From: a virus | DNA length: 28,521 bases | Direction: 5' to 3' (one strand) | IMG/VR virus record: IMGVR_UViG_3300030497_000009 | In this document: in pieces, positions 1,948-11,074 of the stretch | Position numbering within the stretch: position 1 is the first letter of the stretch | Layout: every line of letters starts with the position of its first letter | Made by a program: the position numbers and the translations under genes | The notes under the pieces: model-generated | What the model was told of the DNA's origin: nothing | The model's database searches: none | The model's input: the letters and a program-made list of their open reading frames with translations, nothing else

Positions 1948-3663
1948 ATGGAATTTGAAAACGGATTTGGAATGGGATCTGGTCAACAGGTTTCTGACCT
2001 TAACAAAGCATTATCAGCTGGTTACGCTACTTCACCTGATACACAAACGAATGGTGGCGCGTTCCGTGTTGAATCATTAGAAAGTTCTTTAAAAGTTTTA
2101 ACTTACTCTGACCAACATATTAAGTTTTGGAAGAAAATTCCAAAGAGCAAAGCTACAAATACTGTTGAAGAGTACAACCAATTAATCAGCTACGGTTCTG
2201 AAGGCGGTGGCTTCTTAACTGAAGGCGAATTACCAGATACTCAAGATTCTACTTACCAACGTAAAGCAAGCTTCGTTAAATTCATGGGTGTTACTCGTGA
2301 AGTAACGCATCCTATGACTTTAGTGAACTCAGCTCACGGTGACGTAGTTTCTCGTATGAACCAAGACGGTATCCTTTGGATGCTTAAGAAAATTGAAAAT
2401 GGTTTATTCTGGGGTGACTCTAAGTTAGGTGCTGGCGGTACTGAGTACGTAGAGTTTGATGGTTTGGATAAATTAATCCATCCTGAAAACACTATCGACT
2501 TAGCTGGTAAACATCTTGAAGAGAAACACATTAACTGGGGTTCTCAAATGATCCTAGAAAACTATGGTATCGCAACTGACTTGTTCTTACCATACGAAGT
2601 ATTTGCTCAATTCCAACAAGAGTTCTTCCCTAAAGAGCGTGTTATCATGCCTACTACTGGTGGAACTAAAGCTGGTGTTGTAGTTGACCAATTCCAATCT
2701 CATGGTGGTCCTATCAACTTCGAGCCTAACTTATTCTTGAAGAAAACAAAAGAAGTTCCGACTCAAGCTACTTCACCAAAAGCTCCTGCTCAACCGGCTT
2801 CAGTAACTGCGGCATTAGGCGCATTAACTAACGCTGAGTTTGCTAAATCAGGTGCTGGTTCTTACACTTACTATGTAACAGCTGCTAACAAACATGGTGA
2901 ATCAACTCCAGTTAAATTAGCAACTCCAATCGCTATCACTGGTGCTGACTTAGCTAAAGGTGTTACGTTAACAGTTCAGAATGCTGCTGCAACAGTATAT
3001 CCAGTTGATTACTTGACTGTTTACCGTACAGAAGCTGATGGAACTCAAGCTTTCCAAATCGCTCGTGTTGCTGTAACTAGTGCAGCTGCAAACGCTCAAA
3101 CTGTCGTAACTGACAAAAATGACACTATGCCTAATACGTATACAGCGTTCATGGGTGAAATGTCAGAGCAGATCCTAGCGTTCAAACAGTTAACTCCTAT
3201 GTTAAAAATGGACTTAGCTACGCTTGCTCCGTCTTACAGATGGATGATCTTAATGTATGGGATAAAAGATTTTTCTAAAATCGAGTGTCCTCTTGTAGCG
3301 TAAGTTACAAGTAATAAAGATGGGAAATTGCTGGAAACTCTGAGTATCTCAAGGTAGGATATTACGCAGTAATGACGTAACGACCCCTGAAAATCCGAGA
3401 GTGCAGACAATCAGCAGCCGAGCTTCCTAAGGAAGAAGGTTCAACGACTAAGTGGTTATAAGAGTAATCTTATAATCTGCGCCATCCCCCACGATGTGGG
3501 TGAAGATATAGTCTGACCTCTACAGCGATGTAGAGAGGTAGGCAGAAATGACCTATCCCACTTAGAGCGGTGGTAACAAACTTGGCCAGTACTTTATGCT
3601 CCTAAAAAGTTCTTGCGTTTCAAAAATATCAAAGCTGAATTATACAACGAACCAAGATTCTGA
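1948..3663 (+). CDS. Major capsid protein precursor, intron-split: join(1948..3263,3585..3663), 464 aa
   Basis: Twort/SPO1-like MCP motifs (GYATSPDTQTNGGAFRVESL, LFWGD, EFDGLDKLI). RBS GGAGGT 1935-1940. Removing 3264-3584 joins AT+G and restores the expected C-terminus ...WMILMYG-M-PVLYAPKKFLRFKNIKAELYNEPRF*. Confidence 0.95.
3264..3584 (+). ncRNA. Group I self-splicing intron (321 nt, no internal ORF) in the MCP gene
   Basis: Exon 1 ends in U and the intron ends in G. P1: GGGAU (3259-3263) with IGS GUCCU (3287-3291), U-G wobble. P2 CTTGTAGC-GTAA-GTTACAAG. P AAATTGCTGGAAA 3325-3337; Q AATCAGCAGCC 3409-3419; R GTTCAACGACTA 3439-3450; S AAGATATAGTCT 3503-3514. P3 GATGG/CCATC; P7 GACTA/TAGTC; P7.1 3456-3475; P9 CTCTACA-GCGA-TGTAGAG. 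Confidence 0.95.
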
Positions 3664-3690
3664 GTATAATTTGAAAGTTTTGTTTATATA

Positions 3691-3729
3691 ATAGAGTAGG
3701 GGTTAATTCCTCTACTCTATTTCAATTTT
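3691..3729 (+). terminator. Hairpin after MCP / before HNH gene (terminator- or attenuator-like)
   Basis: ATAGAGTAGGGG-ttaatt-CCTCTACTCTAT, 12-bp stem with one G-U pair, followed by TTCAATTTT (imperfect U-tract). Confidence 0.6.
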
Positions 3730-3742
3730 AGGGGGAAATACA

Positions 3743-4438
3743 ATGAACGCAGAATTTGTAGAGTGTCAAATATGTGGAAAGAAAATGAAGTGGATTCAAA
3801 ATAAGCATCTAAGCCAACATGGTATAACTACGAAAGAGTACAAGAAGATGTTTCCTAATCACCCGAACAAGACATCCGACATGCAGAAAAAGATAGAGGA
3901 AACTCGTTGGGGTGAGTACGAAACGATACACCCTAAAATAAAGAAATGTTTTAGGGAAGGTTGTGAAGAGAAGGTAGCTGAGAAAAGTAAATACTGTTCG
4001 TACAGCTGTAGAGCCACTGATAGGGCTAATAGCGACGCTAATCCTTTTAAGAATACAAAGACTAATCCAGCTTTTAAAACTGGTTCATCGAGTAGCTGGA
4101 AGCGTCAAAGAAAGATACGAGCCGAAATGGATAATCACTCGTGCGTCCGGTGTGGTAAAACGGGGCTTGATGGAAAGGCTCACAAGTACAGTGTGCATCA
4201 CATTATACCTAAGAGGTGTTTCACCCTTGACAACTTGGATGACCGCGATGATGTTTTTAATACGATAACTCTTTGCGGTATATGCCACAAGGAAGTTGAG
4301 TCAAGCTCTTTCTGGTTGCTTGTGCGGTTACTTATAGAGAAAGGTGTTTCACGAGAAGAAATCACCGAGTACCTCCGTAATGAGATAGAAACAAACGCTC
4401 CCTTTGAAGCCTTCATTACTAAAAGTACAGAAGAATAG
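3743..4438 (+). CDS. Free-standing HNH homing endonuclease with N-terminal zinc-binding modules
   Basis: C-terminal HNH/McrA-type core CVRCG...SVHHIIP...NTITLCGICHKEVE. N-terminal CQIC...H...H finger and a C-x4-C...YCSYSC module. RBS AGGGGGA 3730-3736. Confidence 0.88.
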   Translation: MNAEFVECQICGKKMKWIQNKHLSQHGITTKEYKKMFPNHPNKTSDMQKKIEETRWGEYETIHPKIKKCFREGCEEKVAEKSKYCSYSCRATDRANSDANPFKNTKTNPAFKTGSSSSWKRQRKIRAEMDNHSCVRCGKTGLDGKAHKYSVHHIIPKRCFTLDNLDDRDDVFNTITLCGICHKEVESSSFWLLVRLLIEKGVSREEITEYLRNEIETNAPFEAFITKSTEE

Positions 4439-7004: not shown

Positions 7005-7823
7005 GTGATACCTGTAATTGAAAATGTGCTGTCCGAGATAATTGTATCACGATTAAAAGTTATAAAAGCCAACCCAGATATTGTAGATAGACTGTTCAGC
7101 CATATAACAACAACACTTAGAAGCCGTTTAAAAGAATACCTCAAGAGTGATGCAGTCACGGTTATCCGTGGCTTTCCAACGGAACGTGCGAAGCTACCCT
7201 GTTATGCTATCATGCTAGGTGGCGAGCGCGAGCAAGAGAAATTCTTGGGTGATATGTCTGACGACTTCTCTGATGATGTCGAGTTGATTTCTGTTACAGA
7301 GCAGGTGGAAGTGAAGTACAAAAACGGGAAACCGACGATTGAGCTTCAGCATAAGCCGTTAAGCGCTGTGACGTCAATTCTGTTAGATGGTGAAGAAGTA
7401 TTGCCGACTGAAGTTGTAAGTGCGAATCGTTCTATTTTAGCGTTTGATGAAGAAGATGTTCAGCGAGGTTCAAAGCTAGACGTTGAGTATGTCTATAAAA
7501 AGTCTGGTACTGAAGTTTTCGGTACACTGTTCAATACGCAGTATCGTATTGAGACTTGGACGAATAATGGCGACTTGACTGTGCTACTTTACCACCTGTT
7601 AAAATACATCATTCTTTCTTCACGCTTAGAGCTAGCTGACAAGTACAACTTAAATGTCCAAAGTCTTGGTGGGTTAGACTTCGAACCAGCTCCTGAGTAC
7701 ATGCCTGAGTTTGTTTATCGTAGAGCGTTAACGTTTGAGTGCGTAATTGAAAACTCCTATGAAAACGCCTTTGATTACATTCAAGGTATCGAAGTAGACT
7801 GGAAATTGGAAGGAGATAGCTAA
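7005..7823 (+). CDS. Putative tail terminator / tail completion protein
   Basis: Two genes upstream of the sheath, the usual position. GGGGTG (6993-6998) supports GTG 7005 (MIPVIE...); 6996 is the alternative start. Confidence 0.6.
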   Translation: MIPVIENVLSEIIVSRLKVIKANPDIVDRLFSHITTTLRSRLKEYLKSDAVTVIRGFPTERAKLPCYAIMLGGEREQEKFLGDMSDDFSDDVELISVTEQVEVKYKNGKPTIELQHKPLSAVTSILLDGEEVLPTEVVSANRSILAFDEEDVQRGSKLDVEYVYKKSGTEVFGTLFNTQYRIETWTNNGDLTVLLYHLLKYIILSSRLELADKYNLNVQSLGGLDFEPAPEYMPEFVYRRALTFECVIENSYENAFDYIQGIEVDWKLEGDS

Positions 7824-10261: not shown

Positions 10262-10312
10262 GTACATTAACTGTAAACCTTCTAAGGGGGAGTGCAGTTA
10301 ATGTACTTTTTT
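10262..10312 (+). promoter_or_regulatory. Terminator-like hairpin enclosing the RBS and start codon(s) of the GIY-YIG gene
   Basis: GTACATTAACTGTA (10262-10275) pairs with TGCAGTTAATGTAC (10293-10306), 14 bp with one G-U. An inner CCTTC/GGGGG stem covers the RBS. TTTTTT follows at 10307-10312. Confidence 0.8.
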
Positions 10313-11074
10313 GTTTCAGGAATTTATCAGATTAGGAATGAAGTTAACGGGAAAGTTTACATCGGTAGCTCTTTGCTGGTTGCTAGTCGGTTAAAAGGAC
10401 ATAAAGGTCAACTTAAAAGAAACAAACATCACAACATAAAGCTTCAAAACGCTTGGAATAAATACGGTGCGGAAAACTTTACATTCACGCTGTTAGAAGA
10501 ATGTGCGGAGGAAAGATTAATTGAACTTGAACAGGAGTACATGGATAAATTTGACTCGATCCGAAATGGGTACAACATACGTGAAGCTGGGTCAATTGGT
10601 AGACACTCACCTGAAACAAAAGAGAAACTTCGAATAGTGAACCTCAACAGACCAAAGGAAATAAACGAACGAATCTCAAAGTCAAAGATGGGTCACAGCG
10701 TTTCTCCGGAAGCTCGACGTAAAATTGGTGACGCACAAATTGGAAATAGAAACCGTGAAGGAAAAACGTTTACTGAGGAGAGCAAGAAAAAGATGTCAGA
10801 TGCGCTTCGCGGAAGAAAAATATCAGAAGAGGTTCGACAAAAGATAGTTAATTCCCTCATTGGAAACACAAGAGCAAAGGGCAGAAAGCTCTCCGAAGAA
10901 CACAAACGAAAGATAAGCGAAAGCTTAAACAAGATTGATAAAGCCGAGGTTAACAAACGTCGTTCCGAATCACTACGAGGGCGTAAGCAGTCTGAGGAGA
11001 CAAAACGAAAGATAGCAGAAGCAATGAAAGGCAAGAAAAATGCCAAGAAAAGACCGGATAAGGAAGCAAATTAA
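10301..11074 (+). CDS. Free-standing GIY-YIG homing endonuclease with NUMOD3-type repeats
   Basis: SGIYQIRNEVNGKVYIGSS, conserved R, E (LEQEY) and GYN. C-terminal repeats HSPETKEKL, VSPEARRKI, FTEESKKKM, ISEEVRQKI, LSEEHKRKI, QSEETKRKI. ATG 10301 fits RBS AAGGGGGAG; GTG 10292 is the alternative. Confidence 0.92.
   Translation: MYFFVSGIYQIRNEVNGKVYIGSSLLVASRLKGHKGQLKRNKHHNIKLQNAWNKYGAENFTFTLLEECAEERLIELEQEYMDKFDSIRNGYNIREAGSIGRHSPETKEKLRIVNLNRPKEINERISKSKMGHSVSPEARRKIGDAQIGNRNREGKTFTEESKKKMSDALRGRKISEEVRQKIVNSLIGNTRAKGRKLSEEHKRKISESLNKIDKAEVNKRRSESLRGRKQSEETKRKIAEAMKGKKNAKKRPDKEAN

Follow-up and report, generated by a model that had tools for sequence, protein, structure and literature searches.

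An ORF-Less Group I Intron of Predicted Catalytic Competence in the Major Capsid Gene of a Herelleviridae-Type Bacillus Phage, with a Neighbouring HNH Endonuclease Gene

The window analysed here is the whole stretch of viral DNA, 28,521 nucleotides in length, and the phage that it comes from is a large, Bacillus-type, Herelleviridae-type myophage. The major capsid gene is divided into two exons by an intron near its 3' end, and an endonuclease gene follows a short distance downstream:

1948–3263, + strand: exon 1 of the major capsid gene, with 438 codons from the ATG at 1948 and the AT of the junction codon.
3264–3584, + strand: ORF-less group I intron of 321 nt, delimited by the RF00028 match, by its being an insert against intron-less alleles and by covariation.
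3585–3664, + strand: exon 2 of the major capsid gene, with the G that completes the ATG junction codon, 25 codons and the stop TGA at 3662–3664.
3690–3721, + strand: terminator-like hairpin of 13 bp with a T-rich tail, found by consensus scan between the capsid and HNH genes, a putative terminator.
3743–4438, + strand: free-standing gene for an HNH endonuclease of 231 aa, 159 nt beyond the point of intron insertion.

The identity of the capsid protein was set by searches of PHROGs and the PDB. Exon 1 matches PHROG 752 'major head protein' (E 2e-135), with residues 5–438 aligned to profile positions 8–452 of 475, and the solved structures related to its product are SPO1 Gp6.1 (9vel) and a major capsid protein (5lii). 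No Pfam family was found for the protein at E-values up to 0.01, and its homologues bear a precomputed PF17236 label. Exon 1 is colinear with the uninterrupted alleles of the relatives L003 and L004 and 94% identical to them, the identity having been measured for these two; further small inserts within exon 1 were ruled out, the same 438 residues aligning with both.

The original prediction had placed an ORF-less group I intron at 3264–3584 and had named a covariance-model search as one way to check it. This search supports the prediction, since Rfam RF00028 matches window positions 3262–3535 on the + strand over model positions 1–253 of 253, with 68.8 bits and E 1e-15, the gathering score of the family being 50 bits; with the limit relaxed to E 1, the window still gave no other Rfam family or intron. 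The boundaries are exact in comparison with intron-less alleles, relative to which the intron is exactly 321 nt of extra sequence. The intron-less L003 and L044 read GGGAT directly followed by GCC, while L004 reads GGAAT and then GCC; the junction U3263|G3585 is unambiguous, as a one-base shift either way loses the match to these alleles. The predicted spliced junction is ...TATGGGAT/GCCAGTA, the intron ends with a terminal G at 3584, and ligation restores the host reading frame. There is no ORF of at least 30 aa on the + strand within 3264–3584 and hence no intron-encoded endonuclease ORF; the sole ORF of the region is a 58-aa frame with a TTG start on the opposite strand, which overlaps the exon.

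The predicted structure of the intron consists of the following parts:

3259–3291, + strand: P1 and its extension hairpin, from minimum-energy folds, with 3259–3264 paired with 3286–3291.
3292–3311, + strand: P2, 8 bp, with a GUAA loop at 3300–3303, from folding; three pairs are changed on both sides.
3319–3513, + strand: catalytic core, from the Rfam alignment and a hand-built structure counted on 2-, 3- and 4-sequence alignments.
3319–3323 with 3482–3486, + strand: P3, 100% paired in four sequences, with two pairs changed on both sides.
3329–3334 with 3411–3416, + strand: P4, part of the core structure.
3339–3407, + strand: extended P5 arm, part of the core structure.
3417–3440, + strand: P6, part of the core structure.
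3446–3450 with 3509–3513, + strand: P7 (pseudoknot), five invariant pairs, 100% paired in four sequences.
3454–3477, + strand: P7.1, a GUAA-capped hairpin of 10 bp, fully paired in four sequences.
3488–3500, + strand: P8, part of the core structure.
3518–3584, + strand: peripheral 3' domain (P9, P9.1, P9.2, tail and G3584), from folding and covariation.
3518–3535, + strand: P9 with a GCGA loop, four pairs changed on both sides.
3537–3557, + strand: P9.1, three pairs changed on both sides.
3558–3573, + strand: P9.2, from folding.

The U-G wobble of P1, the GNRA-capped P2, P7.1, P9 and the terminal G of the original prediction were all recovered where it had placed them. For P10, inspection by eye gives a weak helix of about 2 bp. 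P9.2 could not be aligned between homologues; the window and the Lysinibacillus phage LysYB1 each hold a hairpin-capable sequence there, again judged by eye.

The fold is supported both by its energy and by comparison of relatives. Fold z-scores of −3.5 (whole intron) and −5.1 (P1–P2) were obtained. For covariation, four sequences were aligned, namely the intron of the window, those of LysYB1 and the metagenome contig L196, and that of Bacillus taeanensis nrdE. In this alignment, 96.6% of the cells are paired, compared with 33–44% when the partners are slid, and 22 of 80 pairs are changed on both sides, compared with 1–3 in the slid controls; none of 500 shuffles reached the observed value on four of the five measures, and 4 of 500 did so on the fifth. 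The exon and the guide have also changed together: exon position −2 and its partner are A-U in the window and G-C in LysYB1, L196 and the nrdE sister intron, in which the exon GGGGU is paired with a guide GCUCC or GCCCU. The sequence thus carries the marks of a group I intron, with the core, the P1 wobble, the terminal G, the P3/P7 pseudoknot and compensatory helices.

IA-type group I introns are common in phages, and subgroup IA is recognised by two additional helices, P7.1 and P7.2, which follow the 5' strand of P7 and precede the 3' strand of P3; in the present intron, one long hairpin (P7.1) lies in this interval and no second hairpin (P7.2) was found there. It has been reported that IA2 is the commonest viral subtype (PMC11835236).

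On the late capsid transcript, the guide GUCCU (3287–3291) would pair with the last five exon bases GGGAU (3259–3263), with U3263-G3287 as the wobble at the 5' splice site. An external guanosine would then attack after U3263, the freed exon 1 would attack after the terminal G3584, and the exons would be ligated as ...GGGAU-GCC..., giving a message for the full capsid protein. Joining 3263 to 3585 yields a protein of 464 aa that ends in ...YGMPVLYAPKKFLRFKNIKAELYNEPRF, and its last 29 residues match those of the intron-less alleles L003 and L044 (L004 differs by one residue), so the spliced product is as originally predicted, reproducing the C-terminus of the intron-less alleles. The unspliced product likewise agrees with that prediction: the exon-1 frame runs into the TAA at 3301–3303, inside the GUAA loop of P2, and yields 451 aa from the ATG at 1948 with the C-terminus IKDFSKIECPLVA. 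On unspliced RNA, ribosomes would halt at this stop, 38–40 nt into the intron and ahead of the catalytic core. Early in-frame stops occur in other phage introns, as in the literature on T4 td, and the stop in the P2 loop resembles them.

Exon 2 has evidently been maintained as coding sequence. Its translation is identical to the C-termini of L003 and L044 and one residue apart from that of L004; against L003, L004 and L044, the codon differences comprise 8, 11 and 10 synonymous and 0, 1 and 0 non-synonymous changes, respectively, and the window-specific changes are synonymous in four of four cases. An alignment of 12 sequences contains four invariant and four nearly invariant residues in exon 2, and the C-terminal 26 residues are kept in all of about 160 capsid homologues. 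These comparisons indicate that exon 2 is under purifying selection at the protein level. The original prediction had stated that the unspliced product lacks 'conserved last strands'; the conservation is borne out by the roughly 160 homologues, but the strands were not confirmed, as an AlphaFold model of the full-length capsid protein of L003 has a mean pLDDT of 53.8, with 28–65 in the C-terminal part, and is too poor for the fold of exon 2 to be read. The case for a structural need for exon 2 is therefore an argument from conservation.

One alternative is that the intron is a dead relic that is not spliced, the shell being built from the truncated protein of 451 aa or the genome being defective. 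This is very improbable: the conserved core elements are all intact and score above the Rfam threshold, paired changes preserve the helices in four lineages, the guide sequence tracks the change in the exon, and exon 2 is in frame and selected at the protein level, with its 26 C-terminal residues retained in every homologue. The fold, the exact insertion point and the protein-level selection on exon 2 are established by comparison of sequences, from which we infer that splicing takes place and is efficient. It is very likely that the element at 3264–3584 is a true group I intron without an ORF, probably of IA type, whose ribozyme is catalytically intact and which is spliced from the capsid mRNA. 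A dependence of capsid output on the efficiency of the ribozyme, which had been suggested earlier, is a reasonable proposal.

Orthologous introns that lack annotation occupy the same capsid codon position in the Lysinibacillus phages vB_LfM_LysYB1 and LysYB2 (OP628075, OP628076; 58.2 bits) and in the metagenome contig L196 (JACCDR010499430.1; 73.4 bits), and a sister intron lies in nrdE of Bacillus taeanensis BH030017, a bacterial assembly (84.3 bits). In LysYB1 and L196, too, the frame of exon 1 is closed by the TAA within the aligned GTAA loop of P2. LysYB1/LysYB2 and L196 resemble the window in codon position, in a core that is 77–87% identical, in the stop within the P2 GUAA and in the HNH gene downstream; they differ from it in the P1 extension, P8 and P9.2, their guides fit GGGGU rather than GGGAU, and the capsid proteins are 61–76% identical. 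The nrdE intron is also ORF-less and of the same lineage, with 80% identity to that of the window over 281 nt, a GUAA-capped P2 and a 5' exon ending in GGGGU, and its core is 76–80% identical to those of the three capsid-gene introns; its host gene, however, encodes the large subunit of class Ib ribonucleotide reductase and belongs to nucleotide metabolism. Searches for close copies of the intron in IMG/VR gave nothing beyond short matches within the core, shared with many unrelated introns of phages; an exact core 30-mer was absent from the viral and metagenome contigs, and a core 19-mer led to one relevant contig, L196.

The site is uninterrupted in 37 further viral-contig alleles and in the 120 best database homologues; it is therefore rarely occupied. 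Each intron-bearing allele has a closer intron-less relative, with amino acid identities of 94%, 82% and 82%, while the capsid protein of the window is 76% identical to that of LysYB and 61% identical to that of L196. Between the window and LysYB1, the intron is 80.5% identical (core 86.5%) and the exon 74.7% identical in nucleotides; greater conservation of intron than of exon was considered as a sign of transfer and set aside, since it is inseparable from structural constraint on the ribozyme.

The protein of the downstream HNH gene has an N-terminal Ros/MucR-like zinc finger followed by the HNH domain (Pfam ROS_MUCR, E 1e-6; HNH, E 2e-6) and matches PHROG HNH families with E 1e-16. A promoter scan of the region gave only a weak consensus match, which overlaps the capsid stop codon and was discounted. 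In LysYB2, L196, L004, L044 and L189, too, the capsid gene is followed by an orthologue of the HNH gene, which in all three intron-bearing lineages lies about 160 nt downstream. Intron and HNH gene occur together in three lineages, the intron without the HNH gene in none, the HNH gene without the intron in two, and neither in 34 loci (17 clusters); the association is significant by Fisher's test, with p 0.001 by locus and p 0.003–0.007 by cluster. The most likely picture for the persistence and spread of the intron is that it travels with this free-standing gene. The HNH enzyme would cut the DNA of a co-infecting relative that lacks the intron–HNH pair, and repair from the present genome would copy both elements, a course of events suggested by their co-occurrence; physical closeness alone could also explain their joint loss or gain.

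A stricter form of this picture is collaborative homing: the target of the HNH enzyme would be the uninterrupted capsid sequence, at the insertion site or adjoining it, which the intron divides, thereby protecting its own genome, and the two elements would spread as a unit. The position of the endonuclease gene so near the insertion site fits this reading, as does the presence of both elements in three diverged capsid clades with the intron never found apart from the HNH gene, and precedents are known: PMC10448857, with reference to Bonocora and Shub 2009 and Zeng et al. 2009, describes such pairs in cyanophage S-PM2, where the psbA intron is paired with the free-standing F-CphI, and in T3/T7-like phages, and the terminase of ICP1 is a further case (PMC10448857). 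However, an intact HNH orthologue adjoins an uninterrupted capsid gene in the close relatives L004 and L044, L044 does not differ from the window on the exon-1 side of the site, and such genomes would cut themselves unless their sites were immune. Moreover, HNH proteins from the three lineages with the intron share only 39–41% identity and are far more diverged than the intron cores, at 77–87%, and recent joint transfer as one block is therefore unlikely. Strict homing is thus possible but doubtful. In a fuller version, also tentative, the two elements would constitute a collaborative homing unit whose target is the best-conserved part of the Herelleviridae capsid gene: the enzyme would cut alleles that lack the intron, at the insertion site or close to it, and the intron would shield its carrier and be copied together with the HNH gene. 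On this view, the ribozyme may derive from an intron of nrdE type, since both targets have GGGRU at their end.

The same comparisons bear on the idea that the intron is old and essentially immobile, its own endonuclease lost or never present, and that it has been inherited vertically since before the three capsid clades split, with many removals by recombination with intron-less phages and mere proximity as its link to the HNH gene. HNH and capsid identities rank alike (87%/94% for L004, then 39–41%/61–76% for LysYB and L196), and core identity peaks, at 87%, for the window and LysYB1, whose capsid proteins are closer (76%) than those of the window and L196 (61%). A clear co-conversion tract was not detected either: window-specific sites match LysYB1 at 3 of 3 positions within 60 nt of the junction, compared with 47% elsewhere, a test that involves few sites. 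This idea would nevertheless need at least three independent precise losses, in clades with intron-less relatives of 82–94% identity, and it has to accommodate a ribozyme of the same lineage in the unrelated gene nrdE after the same GGGGU, which implies at least one move of this lineage from site to site. Immobility is likewise a possible but doubtful account, and travel with the HNH gene is preferred.

Phage head and capsid genes with group I introns have been published before, so the rarity implied by the original prediction was overstated. The major head protein gene of the lactococcal phage Tuc2009 contains one (PMC2504315, PMC3706429), and for the capsid-gene intron of mycobacteriophage LittleE, RT-PCR and N-terminal sequencing across the junction have demonstrated splicing (PMC3706429). 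Compared by description, the present case is like these two in that an intron of self-splicing type sits in the most highly expressed late structural gene, and, as here, a U precedes the 5' splice site and a G ends the intron in LittleE. Unlike the present intron, which is 321 nt long, ORF-less and 26 codons from the stop, that of LittleE is 819 bp long, is found close to the 5' part of the mature protein and contains an ORF for an endonuclease.

Introns of Bacillus nrdE/nrdF and of prophages were surveyed by Tourasse and Kolsto 2008 (PMC2504315). In the present lineage, the core is better conserved than P1, P2, P8 and P9, as in the related introns of prophage tape-measure genes in that survey. 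Like the collaborative homing pairs described above, the window has an ORF-less intron in an essential gene and an adjacent, co-occurring free-standing endonuclease gene, a pairing known here from sequence; unlike them, two relatives have the endonuclease gene without the intron. The DNA polymerase introns of SPO1 and SP82 encode the HNH nicking endonucleases I-HmuI/II, according to the passages on them in PMC3706429 and PMC7414437. The likeness to the present system lies in a group I intron, a Bacillus phage of the same family and an HNH-type endonuclease, whose role in mobility is proposed here; in SPO1 and SP82, however, the endonuclease is encoded within the intron and the host gene is one of replication, whereas here it is free-standing and the host gene is that of the capsid. 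A search of phage sequences gave no significant DNA similarity to the SPO1 intron.

Capsid-gene introns and intron–endonuclease partnerships are thus both already described, and knowledge of group I introns as such is unchanged. The capsid protein, on the other hand, is mis-annotated in the present phage, in the deposited LysYB1 and LysYB2 and in similar metagenomic phages, being called as a protein of about 450 aa with a junk tail and without the conserved last 26 residues. Such an error of automated annotation at the C-terminus had been anticipated, and the GenBank records of LysYB1 and LysYB2 do give a capsid protein of 453 aa, which continues into the intron, and leave exon 2 unannotated; this error touches capsid phylogenies, mass-spectrometry searches and structural modelling. 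The locus also offers a compact natural series for the persistence and movement of ORF-less introns: in three diverged capsid clades the same site is filled, each clade has relatives that lack the intron, some relatives have only the endonuclease gene, and a sister ribozyme follows the same 5' exon pentamer in Bacillus nrdE.

The window represents the structural module of a large myophage of the Herelleviridae type, in which a prohead protease is followed by a scaffold-like acidic protein, the major capsid protein, an HNH gene, and genes for head completion and the tail, in that order. Among deposited genomes, the closest belong to the Spounavirinae: those of the Lysinibacillus phages LysYB1 and LysYB2 and of Bacillus phage YungSlug, with about 77% nucleotide identity in the capsid gene. 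The capsid ORF starts at ATG 1948, preceded by GGAGG, and stops at TAA 3301-3303, giving 451 aa with the C-terminus IKDFSKIECPLVA; both this stop, in the loop of P2, and this length had been foreseen for the unspliced message. In PHROGs, capsid residues 19-78 (window 2002-2181) match families called 'head maturation protease' (E 2e-11).

A group I covariance-model search, proposed as a check on the original prediction, gave a match to the Rfam group I intron at 3262-3535 (+), covering 253/253 positions with 68.8 bits against a gathering score of 50 (E 1e-15); no other Rfam family was found across the 28.5 kb window at E up to 1. The complete group I architecture that had been claimed is present when the sequence reading is combined with the minimum-energy fold and set beside the Rfam match, as listed below.

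Elements of the intron (fold and sequence reading combined, unless stated)
Exon GGGAU 3259-3263 plus A3264, with 3286-3291, +, P1; U3263-G3287 is the splice-site wobble
P1 extension hairpin, +, 6 bp, minimum-energy fold
3292-3311, +, P2, GUAA loop with the in-frame TAA inside it
3319-3323 with 3482-3486, +, P3
3329-3334 with 3411-3416, +, P4
3339-3407, +, long P5 arm with a GUAA tip
3417-3440, +, P6
3446-3450 with 3509-3513, +, P7
3454-3477, +, hairpin between P7 and the P3 3' strand, 10 bp, GUAA cap
3488-3500, +, P8
3518-3535, +, P9, GCGA loop
3' of P9, +, P9.1 and P9.2, then the terminal G3584

The hairpin at 3454-3477 occupies the P7.1 position typical of subgroup IA, and P10 is weak, with about two pairs by eye. 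The plus strand of the intron holds no ORF of at least 30 aa, in line with its description as ORF-less.

Fusing 3263 to 3585 yields ...YGMPVLYAPKKFLRFKNIKAELYNEPRF and a protein of 464 aa. The capsid gene is uninterrupted in three viral contigs of close relatives, L003, L004 and L044, and exon 1 of L003 and L004 is 94% identical to that of the window. The last 29 capsid residues of the three are those of the predicted spliced product, apart from a single K-to-R substitution in L004; in the DNA, GGGAT is followed directly by GCC in L003 and L044, and GGAAT by GCC in L004. Since these alleles read continuously across the site, the insert has a length of exactly 321 nt and the junction allows no shift of even one base, so that the predicted boundaries, 3264-3584, and the spliced product both agree with them. 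The reading across ...RWMIL(M/L)YG-x-P..YAPKK is also continuous in all of 37 additional alleles from viral contigs and in all of the 120 best matches from the large protein database; the site therefore falls within the most conserved C-terminal stretch of the protein and is rarely occupied.

Against the three intron-less alleles, exon 2 (3585-3664) shows 10, 16 and 12 nucleotide differences; the differing codons are synonymous in 8, 11 and 10 cases and non-synonymous in 0, 1 and 0, and all four changes unique to the window are synonymous. The segment carries four invariant and four nearly invariant residues in a 12-sequence alignment with identity down to 38%, and alignment to the solved chain of SPO1 Gp6.1 (9vel) extends through residue 462 of 468; the AlphaFold model of the capsid protein was poor. 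Judged from these comparisons, the functional product is very unlikely to be the 451-aa truncated protein, and splicing would appear to be the sole reading consistent with the data.

Homologous introns were found in four other places. LysYB1 and LysYB2 carry one at the identical codon position (327 nt, Rfam 58.2 bits), which is unannotated; as had been anticipated for automated annotation, their deposited capsid CDSs are 453-aa truncated products reading into the intron (L001 1514-2875, OP628075; L183 3014-4375, OP628076), and exon 2 is also missing from the GenBank records. The metagenome contig L196 (1-2173, JACCDR010499430.1) has another at the same codon position (Rfam 73.4 bits); its capsid protein is 61% identical to that of the window and belongs with SPO1-like alleles, forming a third intron-bearing capsid clade. 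An unexpected location is nrdE of Bacillus taeanensis BH030017 (L190 about 7400-7709, minus strand, NZ_QOCW01000005.1), where a homologous ORF-less intron, with 84.3 bits in Rfam and 80% identity to the window intron over 281 nt, splits the reductase barrel domain between profile positions 56 and 60, with nrdF next. This sister intron shows that the ribozyme lineage moved to a different host gene on at least one occasion, and insertion directed by the guide sequence would fit the GGGGU or GGGAU that ends both capsid and nrdE targets.

Other group I matches were also recorded. Another contig of B. taeanensis BH030017 has a second, sub-threshold RF00028 match (45.9 bits). In Pseudaeromonas phage KLEP7 (L184 2448-2726, OM654377), an intron of 73.2 bits, with 78% identity to the window intron in its 5' half, separates a CDS annotated 'structural protein' from one annotated 'tape measure protein'; the two are probably exons of one gene. 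Vibrio phage 1.084.O (L186 1945-2219, MG592459) has an intron of 80 bits in the space separating two genes annotated as HNH nucleases, and a short metagenome contig (L197, Ga0315294_10030198) has two full-length introns within 1.6 kb, at 1469-1693 and 3017-3261, and additional partial matches to the window intron.

Covariation was counted on a hand-built structure over a four-sequence alignment (window, LysYB1, L196, nrdE), and on two- and three-sequence versions. Standard pairs occupied 96.6% of cells, against 33-44% with the 3' partners slid by 1-3 columns, a measure favoured by derivation of the structure from the window sequence; compensatory changes are free of such bias, and both partners had changed in 22/80 pairs, compared with 1-3 for the slid controls. 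The observed value was reached by 0/500 shuffles on four of five measures and by 4/500 on the fifth. The 5' exon ends in GGGAU in the window and in GGGGU in LysYB1, L196 and nrdE, and the guide sequences are GUCCU, GCUCC, GCCCU and GCCCU, respectively; at exon position -2, G-C thus takes the place of A-U. Such tracking of the exon by the guide would be expected if selection for splicing has continued.

The exon-1 frame stop is shared: in the window it is the TAA of the P2 GUAA loop, and in LysYB1 and L196 it is the TAA of the GTAA that aligns with this loop; in LysYB1 it is kept despite a 3-nt indel upstream. As the stop lies within P2, ribosomes on unspliced RNA would halt short of P3; the T4 td intron has a similar early stop. 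The position may be selected, or may reflect chance, as a one-in-three frame coincidence per lineage.

The HNH gene (3743-4438, +) is a 231-aa ORF starting 159 nt past the insertion site, 3' of a terminator-like hairpin; its product combines a zinc finger of the Ros/MucR type with an HNH motif. The window has a second free-standing gene for a homing-type endonuclease, 3' of the tail tube gene (10292-11074, +); that protein has a GIY-YIG catalytic domain plus four NUMOD3 motifs.

Orthologues of the HNH gene (identity to the window protein)
LysYB2, same position, 39%, intron present
L196, same position, 41%, intron present
L004, same position, 87%, intron absent
L044, same position, 67%, intron absent
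L189 1-778, 3' of an SPO1-like capsid gene end, 38%, intron state unreadable because the contig begins 47 nt before the capsid stop

The intron occurs with the HNH gene in three lineages and without it in none, while of the 35 intron-less loci whose downstream sequence extends for 900 nt or more, one (L004) has the gene and 34 (17 clusters) lack it; the association (Fisher p 0.001 by locus, 0.003-0.007 by cluster) is limited by sequence relatedness and small counts. Each intron-bearing capsid allele has a closer intron-less relative (window 94%; L196 with L025, 82%; LysYB1 with L005, 82%), the window allele shares no more than 76% and 61% identity with the two other alleles that carry the intron, and in the capsid tree it groups with intron-less L003 and L004 (support 98/99); therefore, either several precise losses or several gains have occurred. 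Movement of the intron linked to the endonuclease is favoured: the enzyme would break a naive co-infecting genome, and repair from the intron-bearing genome would copy both intron and HNH gene. Strict collaborative homing of the two is nevertheless rather unlikely, because L004 and L044 retain the HNH gene next to a site that lacks the intron, the divergence of the HNH proteins far exceeds that of the introns, and a co-conversion tract could not be shown.

The sequence features first noted are thus confirmed, and the Rfam match, the junction and the intron-less alleles support the interpretation as an ORF-less group I intron in the major capsid gene. The type is already known, group I introns having been published in phage head and capsid genes: Tuc2009 has one in a head gene (PMC2504315, PMC3706429), and splicing of a capsid-gene intron was demonstrated in LittleE (PMC3706429). 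Herelleviridae are known to carry introns, examples being an intron-invaded terminase and the intron of the SPO1 DNA polymerase gene (PMC7414437); in Bacillus cereus-group prophages, ORF-less phage introns were reported whose cores are conserved and whose P1, P2, P8 and P9 vary (PMC2504315), and subtype IA2 accounts for more than half of viral group I introns (PMC11835236). Partnerships of an intron with a free-standing endonuclease have been described in cyanophage S-PM2, T3/T7-like phages and ICP1 (PMC10448857). The useful additions here are the mis-annotation of the LysYB capsid genes, the co-occurrence with the HNH gene in three clades, and the sister intron in nrdE.
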